53,421 bases of DNA, taken from an uncultured Planctomycetia bacterium. GTDB lineage: Bacteria; Omnitrophota; Gorgyraeia; 1-14-0-20-64-10. Position 1 is the first letter of the stretch. The number at the start of each line of letters is the position of its first letter. This document shows positions 9,589 to 52,809 of the stretch, in pieces. The notes below the pieces were generated by a model. The model worked only from the letters and a program-made list of their open reading frames with translations, was not told the DNA's origin and ran no database searches. The DNA is taken from contig CAYJTM010000002.1 of the NCBI GenBank assembly GCA_964373055.1, positions 1-53,421 on the forward strand, written 5' to 3'. Made by a program: the position numbers and the translations under genes.

Positions 9589-9677
9589 GTCATTGCGAGG
9601 CCCGCAGGGCCGAAGCAATCCCCCTGTGTCCCGAGGAGATTGCTTCGTCGTCCACTGCGTGGACTCCTCGCAATGAC
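9589..9677. repeat. nested palindromic intergenic repeat, copy A
   Basis: GTCATTGCGAGG-[GGCCCGCAGGGCC hairpin]-CGAAGCAATC-loop-GAGATTGCTTCG-[GTCCACTGCGTGGAC hairpin]-CCTCGCAATGAC. Confidence 0.9.
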
Positions 9678-10395
9678 AATTAATTTTGTTACGGCGTTGC
9701 TGGCGGGGCTGGTCTCTTTTCTCTCTCCCTGCGTGCTGCCGCTGATCCCCGGCTACATCTCCTTCATCTCCGGGATCTCCTTCGCGGAGCTCCGGGGATC
9801 GGAGCTGGCCGCTGGCACCCGGCGCCGGGCTCTCTGGAGCAGTGTCTGGTTCGTGCTGGGCTTCACGGCGGTTTTCGTGGCGCTCGGAGCCACGGCCACC
9901 GCGGTGGGGTCGGTCCTTCTGCAGCGGCTCGCGCTTCTGCGCCAGGCGGGGGCCGTGGTGGTCGTGGTTTTGGGGATCCATCTGACCGGCTTGTTCCGGA
10001 TCCCGTTCCTCCAATTCGAGAAGAAGGTGGAGGTCCGCCAACGCCCCCTGACGGCGGTGGGGGCCGCCGTGGTGGGGGCGGCATTCGGTTTCGGCTGGAC
10101 CCCCTGCATCGGCCCCCTCTTGGCCGGGATCCTGGCTCTGGCCGCCGCGCAGGAGACTTTGGGGCAGGGGATGCTGCTGTTGACCGCCTATTCGCTCGGC
10201 TTAGGAATCCCCTTTTTGCTGACGGCCCTCAGCGTGGAGAGGTTTCTCCGGTTCTCCGTCCGTTTCAGGAAATATCTCCGGGCCGTGGAGATCGCCAGCG
10301 GCCTCTTGCTGATAGCGATCGGAATTCTGATGTTCACCGACCGGCTGGGTCTGCTGGCTCGCCACCTCACGTTCTTTAACCGTTTCGCACTTTAG
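9673..10395 (+). CDS. ccdA: cytochrome c biogenesis / thiol-disulfide transfer membrane protein (CcdA/DsbD family)
   Basis: LSPCVLPLIPGYISF motif and 6 TM helices. The ATG at 9673 is the ATG inside the repeat terminus CGCAATGAC. Confidence 0.9.
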   Translation: MTINFVTALLAGLVSFLSPCVLPLIPGYISFISGISFAELRGSELAAGTRRRALWSSVWFVLGFTAVFVALGATATAVGSVLLQRLALLRQAGAVVVVVLGIHLTGLFRIPFLQFEKKVEVRQRPLTAVGAAVVGAAFGFGWTPCIGPLLAGILALAAAQETLGQGMLLLTAYSLGLGIPFLLTALSVERFLRFSVRFRKYLRAVEIASGLLLIAIGILMFTDRLGLLARHLTFFNRFAL

Positions 10396-10407
10396 AGCGA
10401 GGAAAAG

Positions 10408-10905
10408 ATGAAGAAAATTTTCGCCGCGATCCTTTTGGTTGGTTTGGCCGCCACCGGGTGCACCGCGGCCCCGCAGCAGGGCTTGAGGCAGACGGCCCCC
10501 GATTTTAATCTGAAGACGTTGGACGGGAAAACCCTCCAGCTTTCCGCTTTGAAGGGGAAGGTGGTGCTGCTGGATTTCTGGGCGACCTGGTGCCCCCCTT
10601 GCCGGGAGGAAATTCCCCACTTCAAGGAACTGTACACCCAGTACCGCGGCAAAGGCCTGGAAATCATCGGAGTGGCGCTGGATGAAGGGGGTGAAAAGGA
10701 CGTGGCTCCCTTCGCGCGGCAGAATCAGATCAACTACCCCTTGTCCGCGACCGGGGCGCAGCAGCTGGCCCAGGCGTACGGCGGCATCCGAGGGATCCCC
10801 ACCACCTTCCTGATCGACAAGCAGGGGAAGATCGCCAAGAAGTACGTTGGCTACCAGGACAAGCAAGTGTTCGAGACGGAGATTCGAGCGCTGTTGGCTG
10901 AATAA
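10408..10905 (+). CDS. TlpA/ResA-family thioredoxin-like lipoprotein
   Basis: Lipobox LAATGC and a WATWCPPCREE active site. Confidence 0.9.
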   Translation: MKKIFAAILLVGLAATGCTAAPQQGLRQTAPDFNLKTLDGKTLQLSALKGKVVLLDFWATWCPPCREEIPHFKELYTQYRGKGLEIIGVALDEGGEKDVAPFARQNQINYPLSATGAQQLAQAYGGIRGIPTTFLIDKQGKIAKKYVGYQDKQVFETEIRALLAE

Positions 10906-10915
10906 AGTGACAAAC

Positions 10916-10987
10916 GTCATCTCGAGCCCGAAGGGCGAGAGATCTCGTTTTAAGGCGAGATTTCTCGGCCTGCGGCCTCGAAATGAC
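10916..10987. repeat. nested palindromic intergenic repeat, divergent copy B
   Basis: GTCATCTCGAG-[CCCGAAGGG]-GAGAGATCTCG-TTTTAAGG-CGAGATTTCTC-[GGCCTGCGGCC]-TCGAAATGAC. Same architecture as the other copies, with different box sequences. Confidence 0.7.
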
Positions 10988-11008
10988 GGTTTCTGAAATA
11001 GGCTCTAG

Positions 11009-11016
11009 TGTATAAT
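11009..11016 (+). promoter_or_regulatory. candidate extended -10 element (TGTATAAT) just upstream of gcvT
   Basis: TGTATAAT ends 9 nt before the ATG at 11026. No convincing -35 element was seen. Confidence 0.3.
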
Positions 11017-11025
11017 GATTTCCCC

Positions 11026-12213
11026 ATGTCGAGTGATGTCGCGTCTCCTGCCGAGACGGCCTTGAAGAAAACCCCTCTCTACCCTCAGCACGCGGAGCTG
11101 GGCGCCCGGTTCTGCTCCTTCGCGGGCTGGGAGCTTCCCATTTACTACACCTCCATCCTCAAAGAGCACGAGGCGGTCCGGACGAAGGCCGGCCTGTTCG
11201 ACGTTTCCCACCTGGGCCACCTGGAGGTCTCCGGCCCGGACGCGGCCGCCCAGCTGCAGCTCTTGGTCACGCAGGACCTGATCGGGCTGGAACCGGGGCA
11301 GGCCATCTACTCCCCGATGCTCAATTCCCGCGGCTGGATTATGGACGAGATGATCTTCTACCGCCTCGAACCGGGTCGCTTCCGACTCGTGGTGAACGCC
11401 GCCAACGGCGATAAGATCCTGAGTTGGCTCAAGAGCCGGCTGAAGGGTGGGGCCGCCGTGGAGGACCTGCGGGAGAAGGTAGGCACCGTGGCGCTGCAGG
11501 GACCCGCCGCGGCCGGGATTTTCGGGAAGGTTTCCTCCCTGGCGCTTAAGAGCGTCCCCCGCTACCACATTGTTTCCGCGACCGCCGCGGAGAAGCCGGT
11601 CTGGATCGCCCGCACCGGCTACACCGGCGAGGACGGCTGCGAGATCTTCGCCGCCGTTGAGGATTTGCCGGCCATCTGGAAAGGGCTTCTGCAGCAGGGC
11701 CAGCCGGAGGGGATTCAGCCGGCCGGGTTGGGGGCCCGGGACACGCTGCGCCTCGAGGCGGGGCTGCCGCTGGGCGGCTCCGACCTGGACGAGAAGAGCA
11801 CCCCGCTCGAGACCAATCTCGATTGGACCGTCGAGTGGAGGAAGGGCCCCTTCATGGGACGGGAGGCGCTGGAGCGGCAGCGCAGGGAAGGGATCACCCG
11901 AAAACTGGCCGGTTTTGAGATGAAGGGGGCCGGCATCCCGCGGCCCGGCTGCGCTATCTTCCAGGGAGAAACACAAGTGGGACAGGTCACTAGCGGGACC
12001 ACGGTACCTCAATCGGTACCAGGTACCAATCAAGAAGAATCGGTACCTGGTACCGTACGAGGAGAACCGGTACCAGGTACCGTGAGAGGAATCGGCATGG
12101 GCTACGTGCCGCCGCAGGCGGCCAAGCCGGGGACGCGGATCGCCATCGAGATCCATAACAGGAAAGTGGACGCGGAAATCGTCAAGCTTCCTTTCTACAG
12201 GAGAAAGAAATGA
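11026..12213 (+). CDS. gcvT: glycine cleavage system aminomethyltransferase (T protein)
   Basis: KKTPLYPQH...AGWELPIYY...LFDVSHLG... and a C-terminal GQVTSGT...IGMGYV. GTG at 11008 is an alternative start. Confidence 0.95.
   Translation: MSSDVASPAETALKKTPLYPQHAELGARFCSFAGWELPIYYTSILKEHEAVRTKAGLFDVSHLGHLEVSGPDAAAQLQLLVTQDLIGLEPGQAIYSPMLNSRGWIMDEMIFYRLEPGRFRLVVNAANGDKILSWLKSRLKGGAAVEDLREKVGTVALQGPAAAGIFGKVSSLALKSVPRYHIVSATAAEKPVWIARTGYTGEDGCEIFAAVEDLPAIWKGLLQQGQPEGIQPAGLGARDTLRLEAGLPLGGSDLDEKSTPLETNLDWTVEWRKGPFMGREALERQRREGITRKLAGFEMKGAGIPRPGCAIFQGETQVGQVTSGTTVPQSVPGTNQEESVPGTVRGEPVPGTVRGIGMGYVPPQAAKPGTRIAIEIHNRKVDAEIVKLPFYRRKK
12001..12093 (+). repeat. in-frame 27-bp tandem repeat (3 units plus a partial unit) inside gcvT, carrying seven GGTACC sites
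   Basis: Units at 12013-12039, 12040-12066 and 12067-12093 each contain CGGTACC(A/T)GGTACC. They encode SVPGTNQEE / SVPGTVRGE / PVPGTVRGI. Confidence 0.85.
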
Positions 12214-12581
12214 GGTTCAGCAAGACGCACGAGTGGCTTTCTTTGGATTCCGATCGGGCGACCGTCGGCATCACGCAGCACGCGCAGGAGGAAATCTCCG
12301 ACGTGGTCTTTGTCGAGCTGCCCAAGGTGGGCAAGAGCGTCGCGCAGGGGGAGGAGATCGCCGTGGTGGAGTCGGTCAAGGCGGCCTTCTCCATCTACGC
12401 CCCGATCTCCGGCACGGTGACCGAGGTCAATGAGGCGCTGGCGAAGGACCCCGGGCTCATCAACCGTTCCCCCACCGAGGGCGGCTGGATCGCCCGGCTT
12501 AAGCCCAAGAGCCCCGCCGAGGCGGGCGGCCTCATGGATCAGAAACAATACGACGAGTGGGTCAAAGGCGGCGGGCATTGA
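12210..12581 (+). CDS. gcvH: glycine cleavage system H protein
   Basis: Lipoyl-lysine motif VESVKAA. 4-nt overlap with gcvT. Confidence 0.95.
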   Translation: MRFSKTHEWLSLDSDRATVGITQHAQEEISDVVFVELPKVGKSVAQGEEIAVVESVKAAFSIYAPISGTVTEVNEALAKDPGLINRSPTEGGWIARLKPKSPAEAGGLMDQKQYDEWVKGGGH

Positions 12582-13918
12582 ATTTCGTTCCAATCACTGA
12601 GAACGATCGCAAGGTGATGCTCCGCGCCATCGGCGTCGGCTCGTTCGAGGAGCTGATCCAGAGCGTCCCGAAGCTCATCCCCCGCGCCAAACTGAATCTC
12701 CCCGCCGCCCTCTCCGAACCGGAGTTGCTGCGCCACTGCGGCGAGCTGGCCGCGCTCAACCAGGCGCCGGAGCCGGAGCGCTGTTTCCTGGGGGCGGGCG
12801 CCTATTCCCATTGGACTCCCAGCGTGGTTCGCTACATCACCTCCCGAGGCGAGTTCCTGACCGCTTACACCCCTTACCAGGCCGAGGCCTCCCAGGGAAC
12901 CCTGCAGGCGATGTACGAGTTCCAGAGCTTGCTGTGCGAGCTGACCGGCATGGATGTGGCCAACGCTTCCCTCTACGAGGGGGCGAGCGCGCTCGCGGAG
13001 GCCTGCCTGCTCGCGGCCCGGGAGACCGGCCGCTCCCGCGTGGTGGTCGCGCAGAGCCTCCATCCGGAATACCGGCAGACGGTCCAGACCTACTTGAAGC
13101 AATCCGGGATCCGGGTTGTGCTGTTGGAGGCCCGCCACGGGGCCGTGGACCCGCAGGCCGCGGCCGCCCAGGTGGATTCCGGCACGGCGGCGCTGGTCGT
13201 GCAGATGCCCAACGCCTTCGGCTGCCTGGAATCTGTCGAGGAACTTTCCGCCCTCGCCCACCGCCGCGGCGCCCTCTTCATCTCCGTGATCAATCCCATC
13301 TCTCTGGGGATCCTGCGGCCTCCCGGGTCCTACGGGGCCGACATCGCCGTCGGGGAAGGGCAGCCCCTCGGGACCGACCTGAACTACGGCGGTCCTTACC
13401 TGGGGCTGTTCGCCTGCCGCAAGGAGCTCCTCCGCAAGGTCCCCGGCCGGATCGTCGGCATGACCAAGGACGCGCACGGCCGCCGCGGGTTCACGCTGAC
13501 GCTGCAGACGAGGGAACAGCATATCCGCCGGGCCAAGGCCACCTCCAACATCTGCACCAACGAAGCGATGATGGCGCTGGGAGCGGCCGTTTATTTGAGC
13601 TCAATGGGGAAAGAGGGGTTCCGGGAGCTGGCGCTGCAGAACCTCCAAAAGGCCCATTATTGCCGCGACCGGCTCACCGAGATCCCCGGCGTTCGCCAGA
13701 TCTTCCCGGGATCTTTCTTCAACGAATTCGCGCTGGAGATGCCGGTGGATCCGGAGCGCGTGAACCGAAACCTGTTGAAGGAAGGGATCGTCGGCGGGTT
13801 CCCGCTCAAGCGGTGGGATCGCAATCTCACGAACGGCTGGCTGCTCTGCGTCACCGAGATCCACAGTAAGGCCGCCATGGACCGGTTTGTCCAGGTGGTC
13901 CAGAGGTCCCTGAAATGA
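12557..13918 (+). CDS. gcvPA: glycine dehydrogenase (decarboxylating) subunit 1
   Basis: FVPITENDRKVMLRAIGV..., TAYTPYQAE...QG. TTG at 12578, overlapping the gcvH stop, is an alternative start. Confidence 0.95.
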   Translation: MGQRRRALNFVPITENDRKVMLRAIGVGSFEELIQSVPKLIPRAKLNLPAALSEPELLRHCGELAALNQAPEPERCFLGAGAYSHWTPSVVRYITSRGEFLTAYTPYQAEASQGTLQAMYEFQSLLCELTGMDVANASLYEGASALAEACLLAARETGRSRVVVAQSLHPEYRQTVQTYLKQSGIRVVLLEARHGAVDPQAAAAQVDSGTAALVVQMPNAFGCLESVEELSALAHRRGALFISVINPISLGILRPPGSYGADIAVGEGQPLGTDLNYGGPYLGLFACRKELLRKVPGRIVGMTKDAHGRRGFTLTLQTREQHIRRAKATSNICTNEAMMALGAAVYLSSMGKEGFRELALQNLQKAHYCRDRLTEIPGVRQIFPGSFFNEFALEMPVDPERVNRNLLKEGIVGGFPLKRWDRNLTNGWLLCVTEIHSKAAMDRFVQVVQRSLK

Positions 13919-15423
13919 CCCCACAGACGATGATCAAGGAGTCGGTTGAGCCGTCGAAGACCCCCCATTCCCCCGGCCGGCTGCTGGAGCCCCTGCTCAA
14001 AGAGCTCAGCGAACCGGGCCGGCGCGCCTTCACGCTGCCGCCGCTGGACGTGCCCAAGCAAAAACCGGAGAACCTGTTGCCCCCTTCCTTGATACGCAAG
14101 GATCCGGCGGATCTTCCGGAGCTCTCCGAGCGGGATCTGGTGAAACATTTCATGCGGCTGGCCCACCTGAACTTCTCCGGCGAAACCAATTTCTACCCGC
14201 TCGGCTCCTGCACGATGAAGTACAACCCGAAGATCAATGAGGAGATCGCCGCTCTGCCCGGTTTCGCCAAGCTGCACCCGTACTCCTCTGAGGAGAGCAG
14301 CCAGGGGATCCTGAAGCTCCTGTTCGAGACGGAGCGGCTGTTCCGGGAGATCCTCGGCATGGACGCGGTGACGCTGCAGCCGGCGGCCGGCGCCCAGGGG
14401 GAGCTGACCGCGCTGCTCATGGCGGCTGCGTTCCACGAGGCGAAGGCCAAGCCCCGCCGCAAGGTGGTGGTCCCCGATTCGGCGCACGGCACCAACCCGG
14501 CCAGCGCCGCCATCGCCGGTTTCGAGGTGGTGGAGGTTAAATCCAATTCTCGCGGAAGAGTCTCCCTTTCCGCTTTGGCGGCCGCCATTGACGAGGATGT
14601 GGCCCTCTTCATGATGACCAACCCCAACACGCTGGGCCTCTTCGAAGAGGAGGTCCTGGAGGTGACGGCCCTCGTCCATGAGAAGGGGGCCCTCATGTAC
14701 CTCGACGGCGCCAACATGAACGCGCTGCTGGGGCTGCTGCGCCCCGGAGACATGGGCTTCGACATGGTCCACGTGAACATCCACAAGACCTTCTCGATCC
14801 CGCACGGCAGCGGCGGCCCGGGCGGCGGCCCGGTCGGCATCAAGGCGGCCCTAAAGCCGTTCCTGCCGGGACCGATTGTCGTCGAAAAAGAGGGCGCCTA
14901 CCGCCAGGAATCGCCCGGCCCCCTCTCGATCGGCCGGGTCCGATCCTTCACGGGCAACGTCGGGGCGACGGTCCGCGCCTACGCTTACATCCGTTCGCTC
15001 GGGGCGGAGGGCCTCAAGCGGATCTCCGAGGGGGCGATCCTGAACGCCAATTACCTCAAGGCGCTGCTCAAGGACGTCCTGCCGATGGCGGTGGATGAGC
15101 ACTGCATGCACGAGTTCATCGCGACGGCCAAAGAGCTCAAGCAACGCCACGGCATCAAGGCGATGGACATCGCCAAGCGCCTGCTCGATTACGGTTTCTA
15201 CGCGCCGACGATCTGCTTCCCGCTGATCGTGGAGGAGGCCTTGATGGTGGAGCCCTCCGAGACGGAATCCCGGCAGACGCTGGAGCAGTTCGCCGAGGCG
15301 CTCAAGGCGATCGTTCGGGAAGCCAAGGAGATCCCAAGCCGGGTGCAGAGGGCGCCGCACCGGATGCCGGTGGCCCGGCTGGACGAGGTCCAGGCGGCGC
15401 GCGAACCGAACCTGCGGTGGTGA
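13915..15423 (+). CDS. gcvPB: glycine dehydrogenase (decarboxylating) subunit 2
   Basis: PLGSCTMKYNP..., the PLP-lysine region NIHKTFSIPHGGGGPG, and a 4-nt overlap with gcvPA. Confidence 0.95.
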   Translation: MTPQTMIKESVEPSKTPHSPGRLLEPLLKELSEPGRRAFTLPPLDVPKQKPENLLPPSLIRKDPADLPELSERDLVKHFMRLAHLNFSGETNFYPLGSCTMKYNPKINEEIAALPGFAKLHPYSSEESSQGILKLLFETERLFREILGMDAVTLQPAAGAQGELTALLMAAAFHEAKAKPRRKVVVPDSAHGTNPASAAIAGFEVVEVKSNSRGRVSLSALAAAIDEDVALFMMTNPNTLGLFEEEVLEVTALVHEKGALMYLDGANMNALLGLLRPGDMGFDMVHVNIHKTFSIPHGSGGPGGGPVGIKAALKPFLPGPIVVEKEGAYRQESPGPLSIGRVRSFTGNVGATVRAYAYIRSLGAEGLKRISEGAILNANYLKALLKDVLPMAVDEHCMHEFIATAKELKQRHGIKAMDIAKRLLDYGFYAPTICFPLIVEEALMVEPSETESRQTLEQFAEALKAIVREAKEIPSRVQRAPHRMPVARLDEVQAAREPNLRW

Positions 15424-38707: not shown

Positions 38708-38711
38708 TATT

Positions 38712-38850
38712 GTCATCGCGAGGCCGTTGCGAGGCGAAGCCGAAGCAAACTCGGAGCCCCCTCGCTTCGCTCGGGGCAGGCTCCGGGGCCGTGGCGATCT
38801 CGGTTTTAAAGTGAGATTGCTTCGTCCGCTTTCAGCGGACTCGCAATGAC
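38712..38850. repeat. nested palindromic intergenic repeat, copy C (expanded or composite)
   Basis: GTCATCGCGAGG...CGAAGCAAAC...GCGATCTCGGTTTTAAAGTGAGATTGCTTCG-[TCCGCTTTCAGCGGA]-CTCGCAATGAC. Confidence 0.85.
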
Positions 38851-38862
38851 GGGCGAGGAATT

Positions 38863-39271
38863 GGGGGCGACCGGTTTCGACTGAAGGGGTTGGGTCGTGG
38901 TCGCGTGCCGAGGTTGTCCGGAGGCCTCGTAAAAAACCGGGCAAAAAGATACGTGCCAAAAATATGGTCAAGGGAATCGCTCCGGTGGTGCCGATGAGGC
39001 CCGCCGTGGTTCCCATGGCACTGGCCGCCTAAAAACAGGCAGCCCGTCTCCTGGTCCACGCCTGCTAGGCCGGTGAGACGTCAAATCGCAGGCTGGCCGC
39101 GGCCTGGTACCTCCGGGGGTCGCGGCGAGGATACCAACCGGGGGGTAGCCGGCTCCATGATCCTGTCCGCGGGAGCGGGGGTTGGCGATTTGCTCAGAAC
39201 ACGGACTACGCACGTAGTGGCGCGATTTGATCGGCTTCAACACGAGGGTTCGACTCCCTCCGCCTCCACCA
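38863..39271 (+). ncRNA. ssrA: tmRNA (ssrA); tag reading frame ends ...PMALAA-TAA at 39032
   Basis: 5' GGGGGCGACCGGTTTCGAC and 3' GGTTCGACTCCCTCCGCCTCCACCA form a tRNA-Ala-like acceptor with G3-U70. Lies immediately after smpB. Confidence 0.9.
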
Positions 39272-39292
39272 CTTCAGTGGTAAAGATTATTC

Positions 39293-39377
39293 GTCATTGC
39301 GAGCGACCCATGGAAGTGAAGCAATCTCCTTGTGTCCCGAGGAGTTTGCTTCGGGCGCTTTGCGCTCTCGCAATGAC
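39293..39377. repeat. nested palindromic intergenic repeat, copy D
   Basis: GTCATTGCGAG...GTGAAGCAATCTCC-TTGTGTCCCGAGGAG-TTTGCTTCG-[GGCGCTTTGCGC]-TCTCGCAATGAC. The apical loop is nearly identical to copy A. Confidence 0.9.
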
Positions 39378-40437
39378 GGGAATGTTCTTCTCCGGATGCG
39401 CGACGGCTCCGATTTCTTCCGGGCCCCTTTCTTCCTCGCTGCTGGCGCGCCGCGTCTATCTATCTGGAAACCCGTACCTCGATTCGGGATCGGTCGCTCG
39501 GGAGCTGTGGGGGCAGGAGCAGTGGGACCCTCAGACGCGGGTCTGGCGGCTGACCGCCGGCTCTCATGAGCTGCGGTTGTCGCCGCAGATGCCGGTGGCC
39601 CTGCTGGACGGCTCGCCCACTCCGTTGGGAGCCCCTCCGTTGATGCACCAAGGCCGGCTGTTGATTCCGGAACTGCTTTGGAGCGACCATCTCTTCCGCT
39701 GGAAGAGGTCCGCTCCGCCTGCTTCGCGGGCCGGCTCGCGGCTGAAGACGATCGTCGTGGACGCGGGCCACGGCGGCCATGACCCGGGCGCCTCCGGGCG
39801 GTTGGGGCTGAAAGAGAAGACCGTGACGCTGGATGTGGCCCGCCGGCTGGCGGACCTGCTCCGGCGGGACGGGTTCCAGGTGATCCTGACCCGCAGCGAC
39901 GACCGCTTCATCCCGCTGTACGGGCGGCCCGCGATCGCCAACCGGGCGGGGGCCGATTTATTTATATCGGTCCACGCCAACGCCTCCCGCAGCCGGGCGG
40001 CGGGCGGGTTCGAGGCCTACTACTTGTCGGAAGCCACGGACGACCACGCCCGCGCGCTGGAGGCGGCTGAGAATTCCGCGCTGCCGGCCGGGGTGGGCAA
40101 CGGCCACGCCGTCTCATCCAACAGTGAAGCGATCCTTTGGGATCTCCTCTACACCGAGCACCGGGCCGAATCCTCGGAGCTGGCGTCCCACATCTGCCGG
40201 GGGATGTCCGGCAGCAGTTTGGCCTCGAAGAGCCGGGGGATCAAATCGGCCCGTTTCGCCGTGCTCAAGGGAGCCCGCATGCCGGCCGTGCTCGTCGAGA
40301 TCGGCTTCCTCACCCATCCCGGAGAGGAGGTCCGCATGCGCACCCCGGACCACCGCCAGCGGATTGCCGAAGGGATCCGCAAGGGGGTGCTGGCCTTCCG
40401 CGATGAGATGGAGCGCAAGTTTGCCCACGCCAGGTAA
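39310..40437 (+). CDS. N-acetylmuramoyl-L-alanine amidase lipoprotein (AmiC-like)
   Basis: IVVDAGHGGHDPGA...ISVHANA...ARFAVL. Lipobox FFSGC. ATG at 39310 (alternative 39373). The track N-extension from 39073 runs through the tmRNA and is rejected. Confidence 0.9.
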   Translation: MEVKQSPCVPRSLLRALCALAMTGMFFSGCATAPISSGPLSSSLLARRVYLSGNPYLDSGSVARELWGQEQWDPQTRVWRLTAGSHELRLSPQMPVALLDGSPTPLGAPPLMHQGRLLIPELLWSDHLFRWKRSAPPASRAGSRLKTIVVDAGHGGHDPGASGRLGLKEKTVTLDVARRLADLLRRDGFQVILTRSDDRFIPLYGRPAIANRAGADLFISVHANASRSRAAGGFEAYYLSEATDDHARALEAAENSALPAGVGNGHAVSSNSEAILWDLLYTEHRAESSELASHICRGMSGSSLASKSRGIKSARFAVLKGARMPAVLVEIGFLTHPGEEVRMRTPDHRQRIAEGIRKGVLAFRDEMERKFAHAR

Positions 40438-42631: not shown

Positions 42632-43365
42632 TGGCGGGAGCCCGTTCCGACCAGCGCGGCCCCTCCGACCTGCGCCTTCTTTCCATCACGCCCGGTTACC
42701 TCAAATATGCCGAGGGCTCCTGCCTGATCGAGTTGGGCAACACCCGCGTGGTCTGCAGCGCCTCCGTTGAGGAAAAGCTCCCCTTCTGGATGCAGGGTAA
42801 AACGGCCGGCTGGGTCACCGGCGAATACGGCATGCTGCCCCGATCCACCCACCGCCGCAGTCCCCGGGAAGCGACCCGCGGAGGGCAGGGGGGCCGCACG
42901 CAGGAGATCCAGCGCTTGATCGGCCGTTCCCTGCGGGCCGTCGTGGACTTGCCCTCGATGGGTCCCCGCACGGTCTGGATGGACTGCGACGTGATCCAGG
43001 CCGACGGAGGCACCCGCACCGCATCGGTCACCGGCGCCTTCGTGGCGCTGGTCCACGCGCTGGAGTATCTTCGAAAGAATGGGGCGTTCCTCAAACTGCC
43101 GGTGAAGGATTTTGTCGCCGCCACCAGCGCGGGGTTCGTGGACGGGCAGCCGCTGCTGGACTTGAATTACGATGAGGATTCGAAGGCCCAGGTGGACATG
43201 AACGTCGTGATGACCGGCAAGGGGGATCTCGTGGAAGTGCAGGGGACCGGCGAGGGAGGCACCTTCACCCAGCAACAGATGGAGCAGATGCTGGCCCTCG
43301 CCAGGAACGGCGTCGAACGCTTGGTGGACGCCCAAAAAAAAGCGCTGAAGGACCTGCTCATTTAG
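42631..43365 (+). CDS. rph: ribonuclease PH
   Basis: GSCLIELGNTRVVC...WVTGEYGMLPRST..R..RE...G...GRTQEIQRLIGRSLRA. Confidence 0.95.
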   Translation: MAGARSDQRGPSDLRLLSITPGYLKYAEGSCLIELGNTRVVCSASVEEKLPFWMQGKTAGWVTGEYGMLPRSTHRRSPREATRGGQGGRTQEIQRLIGRSLRAVVDLPSMGPRTVWMDCDVIQADGGTRTASVTGAFVALVHALEYLRKNGAFLKLPVKDFVAATSAGFVDGQPLLDLNYDEDSKAQVDMNVVMTGKGDLVEVQGTGEGGTFTQQQMEQMLALARNGVERLVDAQKKALKDLLI

Positions 43366-44042
43366 TGGTGTCATTGCGAGGAGTCCGCCTTCGGCGGACG
43401 ACGAAGCAATCTCCGGTTTTTCTCTTTGCCACCCGCAACCGCCACAAGGTCCGGGAGCTGCGTCGCCTGCTGAAAAATGTCCCGGTCCGCCTGGTCACGC
43501 TGGACCGTTTCCCAACCATCCCTCCGGTTCATGAAGACGGCTCCACCTTCCGCGTGAACGCCGTCAAGAAAGCGGTCCAAACTTCCCGATACACGATCCT
43601 GCCGGTGATCGCCGAGGATTCCGGGTTGGAGGTCCGGGCGCTGGGCGGCCGCCCCGGGATCCGCTCCGCCCGCTTCGCCCTTCGACCCTTCGGCAAGCTC
43701 AGGGCTCAGGGCGAACGGACGCAGAATCAGATTGACCGGGCCAATGTGGCGAAATTGCTTCGGGTCTTGGCCCGCGTGCCGGCCTCCCGCCGCCAGGCCC
43801 GCTTCGTTTGCTTGACGGCGGTGGCGGCCGGCGGCCGGCTCATCAAGGTTTTCAGGGGTGCCTGCCGGGGTTCGATCGCTTTCGAAGAGCATGGGAAGGG
43901 CGGTTTCGGCTACGACCCGGTTTTTATCCCGGCCGGTTCCCGGAAGACCACGGCCCAGTTGAACGCCGCCCGGAAGGACCGGATCAGCCACCGGGGGCAG
44001 ACAGCCCGAGCGCTGGCGGCTTGGCTCAAAAGAGGTCGCTGA
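43365..44042 (+). CDS. rdgB: non-canonical purine NTP pyrophosphatase (RdgB/HAM1)
   Basis: FATRNRHKVRELRRLL, EDSGLEV, GFGYDPVF, ISHRG. The only available start codons lie inside repeat copy E. Confidence 0.9.
   Translation: MVSLRGVRLRRTTKQSPVFLFATRNRHKVRELRRLLKNVPVRLVTLDRFPTIPPVHEDGSTFRVNAVKKAVQTSRYTILPVIAEDSGLEVRALGGRPGIRSARFALRPFGKLRAQGERTQNQIDRANVAKLLRVLARVPASRRQARFVCLTAVAAGGRLIKVFRGACRGSIAFEEHGKGGFGYDPVFIPAGSRKTTAQLNAARKDRISHRGQTARALAAWLKRGR
43370..43414. repeat. solo left half of the nested palindromic repeat, copy E
   Basis: GTCATTGCGAGGA-[GTCCGCCTTCGGCGGAC]-GACGAAGCAATCTCC. No right arm follows. Confidence 0.8.
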
Positions 44043-46635: not shown

Positions 46636-46644
46636 CTTAATCGG

Positions 46645-47700: not shown

Positions 47701-47736
47701 TCGCCACATTCTTCTGGTAAGATTCAGCGTTCCGAC

Positions 47737-47808: not shown

Positions 47809-47879
47809 CTTCTTTTTGGCTCACTTATAATTGCCAGCCGTTTATTTGTCGATAAGGTGGACTAAAATATGATATATTT

Positions 47880-47897
47880 ACATTGTACATACAATGT
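47880..47897 (+). promoter_or_regulatory. inverted repeat ACATTGT-ACAT-ACAATGT overlapping the brnT start codon (candidate operator)
   Basis: Perfect 7-bp arms inside an AT-rich leader. The ATG at 47894 lies within the right arm. Confidence 0.45.
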
Positions 47898-48396: not shown

Positions 48397-48495
48397 AGCA
48401 ATTTCCGGGTCAGGCGGCTAGCCTCAGACAGGTTCTAATGTCATCTAGCCAGCCGCCCCAATCTTTTCTCTCCTAAGGCCGCAACAGAGAGGCAC

Positions 48496-48530
48496 AAAGC
48501 CCCGGTTTGCTCCCTGAGCCGGGGCTTTTT
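48496..48530 (+). terminator. Rho-independent terminator candidate
   Basis: AAAGCCCCGG-12 nt loop-CCGGGGCTTT followed by a run of T residues. Confidence 0.7.
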
Positions 48531-48567
48531 CATTTAAAGAGGAGAGTGAACGATTATAATCGGACTT

Positions 48568-50073
48568 ATGGAAACCAAGGACTTGGCTTCGCTCGCGGCG
48601 GGCAGTATCGAGCTGCTGGAGGCGATCGCGGTGGACCGCGGGCTGCTGGCCGAGCTTCCGAATGACCTGAGGATCCGGCTGCTCACGGCGGCCGGGCAGG
48701 CCTCGAAGCCCGGGCGGGCGGACCAGCAGGTGCTGTGGAGCGCCCGGCGGCGCCGGCGGCAGAAGGAGCGCGGCGCGGCGCGCGCGGCCGATCAGTGCCT
48801 GCTGGACAAGACGGGGATCCGCCGCCAGCGGCTGCAGCTGGTCTACGCGACGCCTCTGCCCGGATCCGGCGTGTCGGCCTCCCTGCCGCCGCTTCAGACG
48901 GAAGAGGTCCCCGGGTCGGTCGAACTGCAGGAGCCCCTGGACTGCTACATCTGCAAACACCCCTACCGGCAGGTGCATTTCTTTTACGACTTGCTCTGCC
49001 CGGCCTGCGCGGAGTTCAACTGGAAGAAGCGCCTTCAAACGGCCGACCTTTCCGGGCGCGTCGCGCTGGTGACCGGGGCCCGCGTGAAGATCGGGTACCA
49101 GGCCGCCATCATGCTGCTGCGGGCCGGGGCGCGGGTGATCGCGCTGACCCGGTTCCCGAAGGACGCGGCGGCCCGCTACGCCAAGGAGCCGGATTTTGAG
49201 CAGTGGGGGGGGCGGCTGCAGGTGTATGGGCTCGACCTGCGCCACACGCCCAGCGTCGAGCTCTTCGCCGCCCATCTGAAGAGGGTGACCGACCGCCTCG
49301 ACTTCATCCTCAACAACGCCTGCCAGACCGTGCGCCGCCCGCCGGACTTCTACCGGCACCTCATCGAGGGGGAAACCGGCCCGCTGGAGGCTCTGCCTCC
49401 GGCCGCCCGCCGTGTGCTGGAGGAGCACGAGGTCTTGCGCAGCCGGAGCCCCCGGACGCATGAGGGGGTGCGGGATTCGGCGCAGCTCTCGCAGCTGCCC
49501 CTGCTGGACGGGGAGGGCAAGCGCGACAGCCAGCTCTTTCCCGCCGGCCAGTTGGACGCCGACCTGCAGCAGGTGGACTTGCGGAAGATCAACAGCTGGC
49601 GCCTGCCGCTGGCCGACGTATCGGCCACGGAGCTCCTCGAGGTGCACCTGGTGAACGCGGTGGCCCCCTTCGTCCTCAACGCGCGGCTAAAGCCCCTGAT
49701 GCTGAAGGTCCCGTCGCCGGACAAGCACATCGTCAATGTCTCGGCGATGGAGGGGCAGTTTTACCGCGCCTGCAAGACGGACAAGCACCCCCACACGAAC
49801 ATGGCCAAGGCGGCCCTCAACATGATGACGCGCACCTCGGCCGAGGATTACATCAAGGACGGCATCCACATGAACAGCGTGGATACCGGGTGGATCACCG
49901 ACGAGGACCCCATTGAGCTGGCGGATCGCAAGCGCGAGCAGCATGACTTTTACCCGCCGCTGGACTATGTCGACGCCGCGGCACGGATCTGCGACCCGAT
50001 CTTTTCCGGGTTCCTGACCGGCCAGCACGTGTGGGGGCAGTTCCTCAAGGATTACCGGCCGGCGCGGTGGTAG
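48568..50073 (+). CDS. SDR-family oxidoreductase with about 170-aa N-terminal extension containing CxxC...CxxC
   Basis: GRVALVTGARVKIGYQ (TGxxxxG) and the Y...K region YRACKTDK. N-terminal CYICKHPY...LCPACAEF. Confidence 0.85.
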   Translation: METKDLASLAAGSIELLEAIAVDRGLLAELPNDLRIRLLTAAGQASKPGRADQQVLWSARRRRRQKERGAARAADQCLLDKTGIRRQRLQLVYATPLPGSGVSASLPPLQTEEVPGSVELQEPLDCYICKHPYRQVHFFYDLLCPACAEFNWKKRLQTADLSGRVALVTGARVKIGYQAAIMLLRAGARVIALTRFPKDAAARYAKEPDFEQWGGRLQVYGLDLRHTPSVELFAAHLKRVTDRLDFILNNACQTVRRPPDFYRHLIEGETGPLEALPPAARRVLEEHEVLRSRSPRTHEGVRDSAQLSQLPLLDGEGKRDSQLFPAGQLDADLQQVDLRKINSWRLPLADVSATELLEVHLVNAVAPFVLNARLKPLMLKVPSPDKHIVNVSAMEGQFYRACKTDKHPHTNMAKAALNMMTRTSAEDYIKDGIHMNSVDTGWITDEDPIELADRKREQHDFYPPLDYVDAAARICDPIFSGFLTGQHVWGQFLKDYRPARW

Positions 50074-50176
50074 GGTGTTACTCGAGAAAATTCAGTAAGT
50101 AGTAATAAAATCTAAATGTTATATTGACAGCCGCCCCTGTTTCCAGCCATACTTGATGTATAACCCCTGAGATGAG

Positions 50177-51547
50177 ATGAGAAAAACTTTACCCAGAATC
50201 CTGGCCCTTTTCCTAAGCATTGGCCTCGCTTTGCCCAGCCCCGCCTTCGGCTTGCGGAACCTGGAAATTGGGCAGAATGCCGCCGGCTTGGAAGCCCTGG
50301 AAACCCAGTTGAAGGAGGGGCAGCCGAGCCCCATCGCCGCCGGGGTGGAGGCCGACAAGCCGGACGATAAGGCAAAGCCCGCTCCTGAGGATAAGGGCAA
50401 ACCCGCTGCCGGCGACAAGAGCAAACCTGCTGCCGGGATGTCCGGCCGCCGGAAGTTCCTCTGGACGGTGCTCCTCGGCGGAGTGGGGACTGCGCTGCTG
50501 ATGAAAGTCATGGGATGGGGGCCTTTCGCTCCTGTGCCGGAGCCGGCGGGCCAGGACTTGAGGGTGCGGGAGAACCGCGTTGTGAGCATCACTCCGACCC
50601 GCATCGAACTGGAACTGCTGCTGACCGCCCGACTCGCGGCCATGGTGGCGAACGAGCATCTGGTCGCAGTGCCTTTTACGCGGGCGGAGGGTGGCACGTG
50701 GGGAATCCGGCTTCCTCGGGAAGGAGATAACGCGAATGGATTCCCGGTGCGCGTGAGCCGGTCTGGGGGCGGGTTAGTGACGGTGAGCACGGAGGCCGGG
50801 AATCCGTTTCAGGGATCCAACGCCGCCGGGCAAAGGGTAAACGGAAGGGCGGTCATGCTGGTGGACCGCGCCGTGTTTGACGCCTTCATGAATCTCTATG
50901 AGCTTGGGCAGGGGCGGCGCCCGCCGATGGGGGCCTGGATGGCGGCGGAGGTATCGGGAGAGGTGATCCTCATCCAGGAGGATGGCCGTGTCCAAACGCT
51001 CCATCAGCTTCCGGACGTGCCGACACGGCAGGACGCCGGGTTGGAGCAGGAGGTGAGGTGGCTGGCGGAGGGGATCGGGATCCGCAGGGTGGGGGAGAAG
51101 GAAGAGCTGGTCATCGCCAATTCCCTGCTGGAATCGGCCCACCCGGAGCAGGCAGGCGTGAAGGTGGTCGCCCAGGCCAGCGTTTCCGTGGATGCCTTGA
51201 TGCTGTTCGATCCGCCGGGACACTACGTGGGCCGGCTGCCGGAGAGTTCGGAGGAGGTCCGCCGGGAAGTGCAGCGGATCCTGGAACAGGAAGGAGCGGA
51301 GTTCGTTGTGGCTCTGGACGATTCTTCAATCCCGGCCGGGCGCATGGCGGGATATCTCCCCTCGGAGCATCCCTTCACCGTTCTGCTTGAACGCGGGGAG
51401 TGGATACACTACAGGGGGATTGTCCAGGCGATCTTGCGGGTGCCTGTGGCCGCGCTCCGGAACCGGATCATGCAGTTTACCCAGGGCTCCGCACGCGCCG
51501 TGATGATCGATAACCAGGGGTTCGTGGCTCTCGACATCTCCGCGTAA
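50177..51547 (+). CDS. hypothetical secreted or membrane protein with Lys/Pro/Ala-rich low-complexity linker
   Basis: Signal peptide, a KPxxxDK repeat linker, and an internal RRKFLWTVLLGGVGTALLM segment. No family recognised. Confidence 0.6.
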   Translation: MRKTLPRILALFLSIGLALPSPAFGLRNLEIGQNAAGLEALETQLKEGQPSPIAAGVEADKPDDKAKPAPEDKGKPAAGDKSKPAAGMSGRRKFLWTVLLGGVGTALLMKVMGWGPFAPVPEPAGQDLRVRENRVVSITPTRIELELLLTARLAAMVANEHLVAVPFTRAEGGTWGIRLPREGDNANGFPVRVSRSGGGLVTVSTEAGNPFQGSNAAGQRVNGRAVMLVDRAVFDAFMNLYELGQGRRPPMGAWMAAEVSGEVILIQEDGRVQTLHQLPDVPTRQDAGLEQEVRWLAEGIGIRRVGEKEELVIANSLLESAHPEQAGVKVVAQASVSVDALMLFDPPGHYVGRLPESSEEVRREVQRILEQEGAEFVVALDDSSIPAGRMAGYLPSEHPFTVLLERGEWIHYRGIVQAILRVPVAALRNRIMQFTQGSARAVMIDNQGFVALDISA

Positions 51548-51570
51548 GGCGGGGTATCATAGACGCCGAT

Positions 51571-52701
51571 ATGAATCGGCGTCTTCTTTTCGCCTTCTTC
51601 TCTATCGCCCTCGCGAGTGCCGGGTGCGGCAAGAGCGAACCGGTTATCAAGATCGGGTTCGTCGCCCCGCTGACCGGCGACCAGGCGGCCCACGGCAACG
51701 ACATGCTGCAAGGGGCCCAGCTGGCGCTGGATGAGGCGCGGGCCGCCGGCGAGATCCTTCCCGGCTTCAAGGTGGAGCTGGCCCCGTTGGACGACAACCG
51801 CAGCCCGGCGCAGGCGGTCTCCGCGGCGAAGCGGTTGGCGGCCGACGCGGACGTGCTGGCGGTGGTGGGCCACCTGAACTCCAGCTGCACCAAGCCGGCC
51901 TCCGCGATTTACCACGAAGCCCGGCTTCTCCACATCTGTCCGGTCTCCTCCAACCCCGAGATCTCCCGCCAAGGATTCGACACCTTCTACCGGATCTGCC
52001 CGACGGATGATTTGCAGGGGCCGGCCGGCGCCCGCTACGCGGTCCAGAGGATGGGGGCCAAAAGGATCTTCGTGCTGGACGACATGACCACCTACGGGCG
52101 GGGGCTGGCAAACGAATTTGTGCCGGCCGCGAAGAGCCTGGGCGCGGAGATCCTGGGGCATGAAGGGATCACGCAGGGGGAGAAGGACTTCACGCCGGTC
52201 CTGACCAAGATCAAGGGTCTTGAACCGGACCTCATCTACTTCGCCGGGATGTTCCCCGAAGCGGCGCTGCTGCTCAAGCAGAGGATGAAGCTTGGGCTGC
52301 CTGCCAAGTTCCTGGGCGGCGACGGCCTGTTCGAGCCGGCCCTGATCGAGTTGGCGACGCCGGAGGCGGCGGAGGGGATGTCTCTCACCACCCTCGGCGG
52401 AGACATCCGAAGTTTGCCGACGGCGCAGACCTTCGTACAGGCCTTCGAGCATAAGCACGGCCACCTGGGGGCTTACTCCTGGTACGCATACGAGTCCACC
52501 CAAATCGCGCTCGAAGCGATCCGCCGCGCCGGCAAGAAAAACCGGGCCGCGGTCCTTGCCGCCATGAAGGGGATGGGCGGCTACTCCGGCATCCTCGGCC
52601 ACCACACCTTTGATTCGAAGGGGGACACCAACCTGCGCACGATCGGCATCTACACAGTCCGGAACGGGAAATTCGAATTCGTCGAAACAGCGAACCCGTA
52701 A
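51571..52701 (+). CDS. livK: branched-chain amino acid ABC transporter substrate-binding lipoprotein
   Basis: Lipobox LASAGC. IKIGFVAPLTGDQAAHG is typical of type I PBPs of the LIV family. Confidence 0.9.
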   Translation: MNRRLLFAFFSIALASAGCGKSEPVIKIGFVAPLTGDQAAHGNDMLQGAQLALDEARAAGEILPGFKVELAPLDDNRSPAQAVSAAKRLAADADVLAVVGHLNSSCTKPASAIYHEARLLHICPVSSNPEISRQGFDTFYRICPTDDLQGPAGARYAVQRMGAKRIFVLDDMTTYGRGLANEFVPAAKSLGAEILGHEGITQGEKDFTPVLTKIKGLEPDLIYFAGMFPEAALLLKQRMKLGLPAKFLGGDGLFEPALIELATPEAAEGMSLTTLGGDIRSLPTAQTFVQAFEHKHGHLGAYSWYAYESTQIALEAIRRAGKKNRAAVLAAMKGMGGYSGILGHHTFDSKGDTNLRTIGIYTVRNGKFEFVETANP

Positions 52702-52705
52702 AAAT

Positions 52706-52809
52706 GTCATTGCGAGCAAAGCGAAGCAATCTCGATCTTAAAACGAGATTGCCACGGCTCTTCGGGCCTCGCAAGAGATTGCTTCGTCGCTGACGCTCCT
52801 CGCAATGAC
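52706..52809. repeat. nested palindromic intergenic repeat, copy F (composite)
   Basis: GTCATTGCGAG-CAAAG-CGAAGCAATCTCG-ATCTTAAAA-CGAGATTGC-...-GAGATTGCTTCG-...-CTCGCAATGAC. Confidence 0.9.

Follow-up and report, generated by a model that had tools for sequence, protein, structure and literature searches.

Intergenic hairpin repeats in an Omnitrophota-like genome are probably CGTC-tagged REPs and predicted sites of an Ssn-family single-stranded DNA nuclease

We analysed six intergenic repeat copies (A to F) in a contig stretch of 53,421 nucleotides, hereafter the window, and find that they are inverted pairs of one hairpin half-unit. The repeats probably belong to the class of CGTC-tagged REPs and Ssn-related motifs (SRM), and a cognate Ssn is predicted to act on the half-unit hairpin as single-stranded DNA (ssDNA). 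Elsewhere this class flanks a gene for a small GIY-YIG ssDNA nuclease, and the window repeats would therefore be a further member of a described system rather than an unknown one. A sequence-only reading of the same DNA had suspected a functionally undescribed family; in fact, CGTC-tagged REPs were catalogued in 2013 (PMC3733652), and their Neisseria members were identified in 2025 as ssDNA targets of SsnA, a GIY-YIG site-specific nuclease that cuts NTS/SRM hairpins as ssDNA (Chenal 2025, PMC11893778). That reading was right that the family is real, lies between genes and has a REP/BIME-like layout, and among the roles that it offered, a protein-binding site is very probably the correct one.

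Direct inspection placed all six copies where they had been reported. GTCATTGCGAG, with at most one mismatch allowed, matched 10 times (vs. 0.95 expected; 0/100 shuffles reached 10), with 10/10 matches inside the six copies, and CGAAGCAATC matched 14 times (vs. 5.4 expected); by the shuffle test, the repeats stand far above chance similarity of short boxes. Copies A and D are 92% identical across 36 nt, and copies C and F have the loop TCTCG-TTTTAAA-CGAGA in common. From 5' to 3', the half-unit runs through (C/T)GTC, ATTGC and GA(G), then a variable, GNA-triloop GC hairpin, then (C)GA(A), GCAAT and C, and the doublets are half-units paired head-to-head. A nested layout of four boxes had been proposed, and its outer and inner inverted repeats, variable GC hairpins and two loop subtypes are all present, but the four boxes are secondary to pairing inside each half-unit, which covaries between subfamilies, and the half-unit is the better parse. 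The working unit is 25-45 nt long and is predicted to form its hairpin on one DNA strand, with an unpaired (C/T)GTC tag at the 5' end, a 5-bp stem (ATTGC:GCAAT, beginning with A-T), one or two tandem G.A mismatches, an apical GC clamp that varies in length and in most cases closes with a GNA triloop (minimal form GCGNAGC), and an invariant C on the 3' side of the stem.

A census of further loci agrees with this architecture. In 377 exact units, for which box conservation holds by construction because the loci were selected by exact box match, the base preceding GTC was C (51%) or T (44%), the commonest spacers (CGAAGC, CGCAGC, CGTAGC and CGGAGC) gave GCGNAGC, and the tail ran C, then C/T, then A/C; GNA triloops predominated among the predicted loops. 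The stem was fully complementary in 40/71 non-ATTGC units in the same frame, which comprised at least seven stem types, including ATTCT:AGAAT, ATTCC:GGAAT, ATCCC:GGGAT and GTTGC:GCAAC. Dimers were head-to-head in 99 cases, head-to-tail in 18 and tail-to-tail in 10. The peptides VIASEAKQS and LRFARNDK, previously named as translations of the motif, are indeed correct translations of its commonest 26-nt form, and similar peptides occur in mechanical ORFs at other loci.

Pfam profiles bear out the six gene junctions (for A to F, Tautomerase/DsbD_TM, AhpC-TSA/GCV_T, SmpB/tmRNA, tmRNA/Amidase_3, RNase_PH/Ham1p and Peripla_BP_6/BPD_transp_2). Copy A (9588-9678; no strand is assigned to A, B, C, D or F) is a head-to-head doublet that follows the 4-OT stop (9582) and precedes ccdA, with a left half-unit (9588-9620, +), a loop of the CCCCTGTGTCCCGAGGA type (9621-9637) and a right half-unit (9638-9678, -); the ATG at 9673-9675, in its terminal box, is likely the ccdA start. 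Copy B (10915-10988), between a tlpA-like stop and the gcvT promoter region, is a sister-subfamily doublet with a left half of stem ATCTC:GAGAT (10915-10944, +), the loop TCGTTTTAAGGCGA and a right half of stem ATTTC:GAAAT (10959-10988, -). Its halves differ from each other, yet both are self-complementary; B was considered as a decayed copy, and this was rejected in favour of sister subfamilies, each half being complementary within itself. Copy C (38711-38851), which separates the smpB stop from the 5' end of the tmRNA, is a composite doublet with a degenerate composite left arm (38712-38750, +) that holds a nested unit (38723-38750, GTTGCGAG...GAAGCAAAC), a GC-rich insert, a TTTTAAA loop and a right half-unit (38815-38851, -). 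Copy D (39292-39378), between the tmRNA 3' end (39271) and an amidase gene, joins a left half (39292-39326, +) and a right half (39344-39378, -) through the loop TCCTTGTGTCCCGAGGAG, and has an ATG at 39373 in frame with the amidase.

Copy E (43369-43414, +), which lies past the rph stop (43365) and ahead of the conserved RdgB core, had been described as a left half only; it is a single half-unit (TGTC-ATTGC-GAGGA-GTCCGCC(TTCG)GGCGGAC-GACGAA-GCAAT-C plus tail). It is traversed by the rdgB reading frame, and the Ham1p profile begins at ORF residue 20. Copy F (52705-52810), between the livK stop and livH, is a grouped element with a left unit of the minimal GCAAAGC form (52705-52731, +), a TCGATCTTAAAACGAGA loop, a truncated third half-unit (52747-52774, -) and a right unit (52777-52810, -); the ATG at 52805 is likely the livH start. 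As ssDNA, the doublets fold at -28 to -36 kcal/mol (A, dG -30.7, z = -7.2; B, -28.5, z = -7.5; C, -36.2, z = -2.6; D, -28.2, z = -6.3; F, -27.9, z = -4.1), and singlet E folds with z = -1.2. In the source metagenomes, depth over copy A was ~8 times that of its flanks, and loose ends fell at 9586-9589 and 9620-9621; the right half of copy B had the highest depth (~23-26 times the flanks in X1, X3 and X4; a higher ratio still in X6, but with uneven flank depth), with loose ends at 10956-10957 and 10987-10989; and copy C showed a depth spike with loose ends at 38813, 38826 and 38850.

The conjecture that the family is widespread proved correct. Database matches comprised at least 120 loci in genomes and at least 120 viral ones, and among the matches listed the half-unit spans almost all bacterial phyla, patchily, and extends to phage contigs, mostly between genes (76%); 559 kb of control loci gave one weak match only. 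One close relative (L242) is without copies A-E at 5/5 orthologous junctions compared, and another (L358) has D and is without C and E (absent at 2/3 junctions compared); E is also absent from contig P0124, and rph and rdgB overlap or abut in both L358 and P0124. The orthologous D of L358 has a loop type identical to that in the window, and between these copies the boxes differ at 1/39 positions and the spacers at 7/28 (p = 0.008). In the near-identical populations examined, neither precise excision nor an empty-site variant was seen. The window doublets look like gene-less derivatives gained recently at tight operon junctions, and it is plausible that they are non-autonomous, MITE-like elements.

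A 96-aa GIY-YIG ORF at one element-bearing locus is bracketed by the half-unit, and of eight more homologues, chosen blind to their flanks, 8/8 have the unit or a GTTGC variant directly beside the gene, with a unit or partial unit readable on both sides in 6/8; in total, a ~95-aa GIY-YIG gene is directly flanked by the half-unit at 9/9 independent loci. The first protein is 44% identical (E = 9e-17) to the gonococcal orthologue of SsnA, a Neisseria gonorrhoeae ORF flanked by CGTCATTCCCGCGCAGGCGGGAATC, and Y6, Y17 and E64, whose mutation abolished SsnA cleavage (PMC11893778), are invariant in the Ssn alignment. Published mutagenesis also showed that SsnA depends critically on the three bases that precede the palindrome and on the C that directly follows it (PMC11893778), and the window-type unit has GTC and C at these positions. 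Conceivably, though improbably, ssn cassettes merely use existing doublets as safe insertion sites, as some insertion sequences target REPs, with the nuclease not acting on the hairpins and another agent making or maintaining the repeats: the gene occupies the doublet-loop position in 9/9 ssn loci, and several of these have extra units nearby, outside the bracket. Against this, protein clade and flanking hairpin type change together (Planktothrix, Spirosoma, Rhizobium, Neisseria), in vitro, homologues of SsnA bind the hairpins beside their own genes and cleave them (PMC11893778), and the tag and 3' C are the most conserved positions of the half-unit.

Comparison with known systems points to the same class. 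Like SsnA-associated NTS, NTSvar and SRM sites (PMC11893778), the unit has a 5' (C/T)GTC tag, then A-T, a hairpin and A-T-C at the 3' side; in both, hundreds of nearly all intergenic copies, often in inverted pairs, accompany a nuclease gene bracketed by the motif, and the neighbouring proteins are 38-55% identical to gonococcal SsnA, with Y6, Y17 and E64 kept. However, the published pattern HGTCWYN(0-2)YYVSBRHN(0-5)WNVSBRGN(0-2)RNCYNB matches 0/6 window copies, a conserved tandem G.A mismatch follows after just 5 bp of the unit stem, the apical GC hairpin is 0 to ~40 nt (vs. a 3-5 nt loop in SRM), and the unit-associated Ssn clade, whose pairing with the unit is predicted, is distinct and unusually uniform (66-74% identity across several phyla). 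In the accessible part of the catalogue of CGTC-1 to CGTC-4, which includes Neisseria dRS3 and Rickettsia RPE-4 and RPE-6 (Di Nocera 2013, PMC3733652), the half-unit fits most features of the superfamily: an unpaired CGTC/TGTC tag, an A-T-first stem, a 3-nt tail near CCA, head-to-head dimers commonest and tail-to-tail rare, occasional intragenic or N-terminal copies, no adjacent transposase and an uneven species distribution; CGTC-3 (CGTCATTGCCGGG...CCCGGCAATCC) has CGTCATTGC...GCAATCC in common with it. As far as that part goes, the families are defined by an uninterrupted stem of 8-9 bp with a 4-5 nt loop, whereas here the stem is interrupted and the loop variable, and none of the four-family peptide signatures (VIPAKAGI, VIAGLDPAI, VIPWLDHGI and others) equals VIASEAKQS.

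It is unlikely that the repeats act mainly as RNA in operon transcripts, stabilising upstream mRNA, pausing ribosomes or directing processing as proposed for E. coli REPs, even though the six copies lie within co-directional operons or at their edges, 4-16 nt from the upstream stop (D, 21 nt past the tmRNA 3' end), units are largely intergenic, UUCG-type loops occur in E and F, and G-T stem pairs are present (e.g. GTTGC:GCAAT 14 times). The G.A motif and tag lie on one strand only, and RNA is not bound by SsnA (PMC11893778). Relative to transcription, singlets have no preferred orientation (43 sense, 37 antisense), no Rfam match was found even at E <= 1, and metatranscriptome contigs span the tmRNA with essentially nil depth on copies C and D; on these grounds, an RNA stabiliser or processing site, as earlier suggested, is not supported as the primary role. 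GNA triloops and GCGAAGC typify stable DNA hairpins, and d(GCGAAGC)/GNA-triloop DNA mini-hairpins and tandem sheared G.A mismatches were reportedly described by Hirao and colleagues in the 1990s. The minimal unit holds exactly GCGAAGC (variants GCGCAGC, GCGTAGC and GCGGAGC), bordered by 5'-GA/GA-5' mismatches; the mini-hairpins differ in being structural motifs and no repeat family, and the likeness bears only on the argument that what is selected is a DNA fold.

Classical REP/BIME/REPIN elements (Nunvar 2010; Bertels and Rainey 2011; Ton-Hoang 2012) likewise are short imperfect palindromes with an unpaired 5' tag, occur as singlets, inverted doublets and clusters with lineage-specific expansions, and bracket a single-copy gene for an ssDNA-hairpin-specific enzyme. 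Mobilisation by a RAYT (Y1 HUH transposase) encoded elsewhere in the genome would suit this layout, and RAYT absence from one window is expected because RAYTs are single-copy, but we consider it very improbable: the tag is (C/T)GTC rather than GTAG, tblastn with E. coli RayT gave no match in ~2.6 Mb of element-bearing loci, the repeatedly bracketed gene is GIY-YIG, and the accessible part of the 2013 survey associates no transposase with CGTC REPs (PMC3733652). The REP-associated tyrosine transposase raised by the sequence-only reading thus found no support. REPIN-RAYT systems are also described as mostly vertical and lineage-specific, whereas the window-type unit is identical in many phyla and phage contigs among the matches listed. 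Terminal-inverted-repeat MITEs derived from a DDE-transposase insertion sequence are scarcely credible, despite terminal inverted repeats of 11 bp, a small size, many copies and presence/absence differences between relatives: the suggested check for target-site duplications (1 to 9 nt) gave none above shuffle expectation in 105 doublets, half-units also occur alone and in same-strand tandem arrays, read and contig boundaries coincide with half-unit ends, and no transposase recurs near the elements.

Returning to the Ssn-related assignment, we propose that a cognate Ssn-family nuclease (single-domain GIY-YIG, ~95 aa) would bind the hairpin only in ssDNA and, as Neisseria SsnA does biochemically on NTS, nick a few bases 5' of the tag. 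No ssn gene lies within the 53-kb window; we infer that this Omnitrophota-like genome encodes such an Ssn, which would cut the window sites and drive their spread. The sites and their nuclease gene also act like a selfish pair, with ssn between two inverted half-units in the manner of an insertion sequence; a GIY-YIG nuclease alone does not account for reinsertion. With binding and nicking confined to ssDNA, the sites would mark where exposed ssDNA is cut, for example in transformation, conjugation or replication, and, if this is true, cutting at them would modulate recombination.

All six repeat copies that the sequence-only reading had described as nested four-box palindromes are present in the window (A, 9588-9678; B, 10915-10988; C, 38711-38851; D, 39292-39378; E, 43369-43414; and F, 52705-52810). 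With at most one mismatch, GTCATTGCGAG occurs 10 times in the window vs. 0.95 expected, a count that no shuffle reached, and all ten matches fall inside the six copies; CGAAGCAATC occurs 14 times vs. 5.4 expected. The two proposed loop subtypes are genuine (A and D, 92% identity over 36 nt; C and F, 84% over 37 nt, inverted), and doublets, that is, half-units (hereafter units) paired head to head, folded as ssDNA at -28 to -36 kcal/mol (z = -7.2, -7.5, -2.6, -6.3 and -4.1). Profile matches agreed with the flanking genes that had been named at each junction (Tautomerase/DsbD_TM, AhpC-TSA/GCV_T, SmpB/tmRNA, tmRNA/Amidase_3, RNase_PH/Ham1p and Peripla_BP_6/BPD_transp_2). Every Rph relative that bears a name belongs to Candidatus Omnitrophica, and the sequencing runs containing the window are mainly groundwater metagenomes (e.g. 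ERR4904390). Within metagenomes containing the window, depth rose 8- to 25-fold over the repeats and contigs diverged precisely at half-unit edges (9586-9589, 9620-9621, 10956-10957, 10987-10989, 38850 and 39293); we therefore take the half-unit to be the repeated module.

Read 5' to 3', the unit consists of a (C/T)GTC tag, ATTGC, GA(G), a variable spacer, (C)GA(A), GCAAT, C and a C/T-A/C tail, with CGTCATTGCGAGCGAAGCGAAGCAATCCA as its minimal form; every unit in the window begins with CGTC or TGTC and ends in ...AAT-C (...GAT-C in copy B). The 5-bp stem is followed by a G.A mismatch and then by a GC stem of variable length, with loops mostly of 3 nt (GNA). Spacers span 4 to more than 40 nt, the most frequent yielding GCGAAGC, GCGCAGC, GCGTAGC and GCGGAGC, and the longer ones forming GC stems closed mainly by a GNA triloop. 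Since d(GCGAAGC) is a known mini-hairpin, the GA/GA positions can be read as able to form tandem sheared G.A pairs, judging from their sequence. Under a nearest-neighbour DNA model, which gives sheared G.A pairs no credit, spacers folded at -5.6 vs. -3.5 kcal/mol in shuffles, a moderate excess.

Covariation, suggested earlier as a check, bore out pairing within the half-unit: 40 of 71 same-frame units with another 5-mer in the stem had full complementarity, stems fell into at least seven types, and GTTGC:GCAAT, with its G-T pair, was found 14 times. The halves of copy B carry the stems ATCTC:GAGAT and ATTTC:GAAAT, each self-complementary, while the long-range outer inverted repeat between them is mismatched. 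The four-box description is thus right as sequence but secondary as structure, because it is the pairing within each half that covaries. Sister hairpin types (e.g. GTCTTCTCGACCGAAGCGCAGCGAAGTGGAGAGATC, from Pedobacter, and TGTCATCGCGAGCGGAACGCGGCGATCTCG) adjoin the ATTGC type elsewhere, as in two loci from public collections (L157, 6180-6230; L348, about 4390-4440), so several subfamilies can coexist in one genome, as copy B does with the others in the window.

Searching public collections with GTCATTGCGAG-N(4-34)-GAAGCAATC, we found the unit in at least 120 genomes and at least 120 viral contigs, and the earlier suspicion that the family is widespread was well founded. The genomes listed include Bradyrhizobium, Sphingomonas, Pedobacter, Mucilaginibacter, Flavobacterium, Chloroflexus, Nostoc, Microcoleus, Sporomusa and Helicobacter rodentium, with Patescibacteria, Zixibacteria, Planctomycetota, Latescibacterota and others as further carriers among the matches listed. 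The distribution is patchy, with one weak match in 80 unrelated loci (559 kb) picked through SmpB. The census shows that the repeats populate phage or prophage genomes too (IMG/VR loci L001, L003, L006, L017, L025, L029, L036, L056 and others); in a group of related phage contigs, each with several units, these lie between genes for capsid, portal, adaptor and tail proteins. Because census loci were chosen by exact box match, what they show independently is limited to the flanks, the spacers, the arrangement and the neighbouring genes; as to arrangement, 192 units were single, 36 lay in same-strand tandem arrays and 220 in inverted pairs. Neighbouring pairs were head-to-head (tags outward) in 99 cases, head-to-tail in 18 and tail-to-tail in 10. 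About three quarters of the units were intergenic by crude gene calls, and singlets between co-directional genes displayed no strand preference (43 sense vs. 37 antisense). The base preceding GTC, which is not part of the search key, was C or T in 95% of units. The GTC ahead of the stem and the C behind it are in the search pattern and constant by construction, and after GCAAT and this C came C (51%) or T (45%) and then A (39%) or C (48%).

What ties the unit to a protein is a small nuclease gene. A motif scan of the loci revealed, in a Planctomycetota MAG (L188), a 96-aa GIY-YIG ORF that is inserted at the pheT/pheS junction and bracketed on both sides by the ATTGCGAG unit with tags outward. 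At least 8000 homologues of this protein were found, the best 120 of which are 66-74% identical and come from several phyla; clade members are 95-99 aa long with PF01541 as their sole domain. Eight further homologues were chosen by nothing but contig name or length, and in all of them the gene directly adjoins the unit or the GTTGC variant, which can usually be seen at both ends. With L188 this makes 9/9 independent loci, mostly bracketed on both sides and with tags outward, against a background of one weak match in 559 kb. Each of the eight has a different insertion context: liv permease/binding-protein genes, gatB/IF-2B, NurA and its neighbours, uvrB/uvrA, a response regulator, hsdR/hsdM, a glycoside hydrolase, and a methylase with ResIII. 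An N. gonorrhoeae ORF flanked by the canonical NTS, the target hairpin of the Neisseria nuclease SsnA, is 44% identical to the L188 protein (tblastn, E = 9e-17), and on replicons of Planktothrix, Spirosoma and Rhizobium the homologue is in each case flanked by a variant of its own (ATTCT:AGAAT, ATCCC:GGGAT and the CGTC-3-like ATCCCAGGG, respectively). Y6, Y17 and E64 are invariant in a 13-sequence alignment; NCBIfam holds no specific model for this nuclease, and the 53 kb window itself has no ssn gene. An all-against-all clustering of ORFs within 1.5 kb of elements returned only phage structural genes and ABC transporters as recurrent families; its 90-aa cut-off and its exclusion of element-overlapping ORFs dropped most small GIY-YIG genes, the 96-aa L188 ORF passing, and the later motif scan recovered them.

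Ssn cassettes of this clade often lie within restriction-modification or defence loci (hsdR/hsdM; N6_N4 methylase/ResIII helicase; MmeI/DISARM drmA on a Planktothrix plasmid; and beside genes for NurA, PDDEXK and a methylase, with a HerA-type gene downstream). One sits between uvrB and uvrA; cassettes in such loci and at uvrB/uvrA occupy L354 3001-3297, L356 3001-3294, L350 598-882, L344 4001-4291 and L348 4001-4288.

Two published systems invite comparison. SsnA is a 94-aa GIY-YIG protein that binds the NTS (CGTCATTCCCGCGMAVGCGGGAATCYRG) only as ssDNA and cuts a few nt upstream; cleavage depends most on the three bases that precede the palindrome and binding most on the C that follows it, mutation of Y6, Y17 or E64 abolishes cleavage, and ssn homologues are bracketed by related motifs, SRMs (PMC11893778). 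The unit shares with these hairpins its orientation, the GTC upstream of the palindrome and the C right after it, the flanking of an Ssn-family gene (in 9/9 loci of the L188 clade) and a nuclease that is a single-domain GIY-YIG homologue of SsnA with the catalytic residues kept. However, the published SRM/NTS pattern, HGTCWYN(0-2)YYVSBRHN(0-5)WNVSBRGN(0-2)RNCYNB, matches 0 sites in the window and, as a regular expression, rejects the consensus unit while accepting the Neisseria NTS. By analogy with SsnA, a nuclease would bind and cut the unit only when it is single-stranded, acting on the tagged strand and cutting a few nt upstream of the tag; the only indirect support comes from the singlets' lack of strand bias relative to transcription and from the DNA-type loops. 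The second system is the CGTC-REP class, defined in PMC3733652 by an unpaired CGTC/TGTC (or CCTC) tag, an A-T stem start, a CCA-like 3-nt tail, a stem of 8-9 bp and a loop of 4-5 nt, with head-to-head dimers predominant, tail-to-tail rare and head-to-tail scarce, no dedicated transposase, and Neisseria dRS3 and Rickettsia RPE-4 and RPE-6 as members. Measured against this definition, the unit has the tag, the A-T start, the tail, the head-to-head predominance and no recurrent transposase nearby, but it has neither an uninterrupted 8-9 bp stem nor a 4-5 nt loop; the Bradyrhizobium "CGTC-1 with unusual loops" mentioned in that paper may be the same unit.

Taken together, the best explanation of the repeats is that they belong to the CGTC-REP / Ssn-related-motif class, to which they add a member with a distinctive interrupted hairpin and its own, widely spread Ssn clade. 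The suggestion that the family is functionally undescribed is not supported, since PMC3733652 and PMC11893778 already cover the class; our literature search by sequence strings and peptides returned unrelated primer matches only. The proposals of REP-like and protein-binding elements were right in kind, and those of a RAYT partner and an RNA found no support.

Comparison with relatives of the window organism gave a view of when copies arrived. In one relative (L242, ~79% DNA identity), none of copies A to E is present at the orthologous junctions. In a second (L358, whose Rph is 81% identical), copy D has an orthologue of the same loop subtype, C and E are missing, and rph and rdgB overlap by 4 nt; the copies were thus gained at different times, D being common to the window and L358, and C and E specific to the window lineage. 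Between the orthologous D copies, boxes differ at 1/39 positions and spacers at 7/28 (p = 0.008), which suggests from sequence conservation that the boxes are under constraint. In near-identical populations a search for precise empty-site or excision variants yielded no exact joints, copies being missing only in divergent relatives.

A bolder reading, whose chances we rate somewhat below even, is that the bracketed cassette (half-unit, 95-aa GIY-YIG gene, inverted half-unit) could be an autonomous mobile element of a not-yet-established class whose only protein is a site-specific ssDNA nuclease, with gene-less doublets and singlets as non-autonomous derivatives and the ATTGCGAG lineage recently moving between phyla and into phages. 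It is compatible with the nine insertion contexts, with gain and loss between close relatives, and with the absence of target-site duplications, for which a check had been proposed: none flank the 105 doublets, direct end repeats of 1-9 nt being no commoner than in shuffled pairings. The nuclease is ~70% identical across Planctomycetota, Chloroflexota, Desulfobacterota, Marinimicrobia, Omnitrophota and others, and the DNA boxes are shared, these being the search key. A nuclease by itself does not reinsert DNA.

The remaining readings fared worse than membership of the CGTC-REP / Ssn-related-motif class. An RNA element, as the sequence-only reading had considered, is disfavoured by the balance of sense and antisense singlets and by the repeats having no Rfam match even at E <= 1; tmRNA and tRNAs alone matched in the window at gathering score. 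In assembled metatranscriptome contigs, which are from related organisms only and constitute weak evidence, the tmRNA was covered and the repeats on either side were not. A TIR-MITE of a DDE transposon is made unlikely by the lack of target-site duplications flanking the 105 doublets. As for a REP/REPIN-RAYT pair, the tag is YGTC and not GTAG-type, the bracketed gene is GIY-YIG and not a Y1 HUH RAYT, and the E. coli RayT query found no homologue at E <= 1e-3 in any locus examined.

The repeats also touch the genes beside them. The terminal box CTCGCAATGAC contains an ATG that shares the reading frame of ccdA (9673-9675) and livH (52805-52807), and possibly of the amidase gene (39373-39375). 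This ATG is apparently the start codon of ccdA and livH, the Pfam profiles starting at residues 3 and 11, respectively, counted from the box ATGs. Across all loci, long open frames were equally common in the ATG frame (15%) and a control frame (15%), so this use is a local co-option. The rdgB frame passes through half-unit E (43365-43422), either adding ~19 element-encoded residues or starting at a TTG within the box. The tmRNA bracketed by copies C and D (38863-39271) is predicted to encode a tag peptide of unusual length (25 aa, AKNMVKGIAPVVPMRPAVVPMALAA) and is highly abundant in groundwater metatranscriptomes. Inside gcvT, an in-frame 3 x 27 nt tandem repeat (12011-12091) encodes SVPGTNQEE / SVPGTVRGE / PVPGTVRG, includes GGTACCNGGTACC palindromes and lies between the GCV_T and GCV_T_C domains, the corresponding stretch of L242 being only about 24 nt. 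Unrelated to the repeat family, the ORF starts at 2687-2758 and 7487-7558 are 75% identical over 72 nt and have a paralogous N-terminal Cys-rich motif in common, the former reading ...C-P-K-C-G-M.

Short-read contigs stop at the repeats, many P00xx contigs are 500-2000 nt long, many ssn genes sit on very short contigs, and an SmpB-carrying Logan contig (L121, ERR4904390) ends ~30 nt past the smpB stop, inside copy C; assemblies are thus often broken by this family. A repeat that is abundant, fragments metagenome assemblies and gives rise to spurious ORFs (peptides such as VIASEAKQS, LRFARNDK and IASLRSQ*) is now tied to a described protein-DNA system, which gives annotators a name for it and a means of masking it. 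The Ssn-hairpin system in turn gains a type of hairpin not caught by the published search pattern, many further phyla (Omnitrophota and Patescibacteria among them) together with phage contigs, and a nuclease clade unusually uniform across phyla. How CGTC-type repeats spread is a question left open in both PMC3733652 and PMC11893778, and the comparison of close relatives supplies material for it in the form of dated gains at defined junctions. Should the specificity of the clade be confirmed, the toolbox of site-specific ssDNA nucleases that has been proposed would gain a new recognition sequence.
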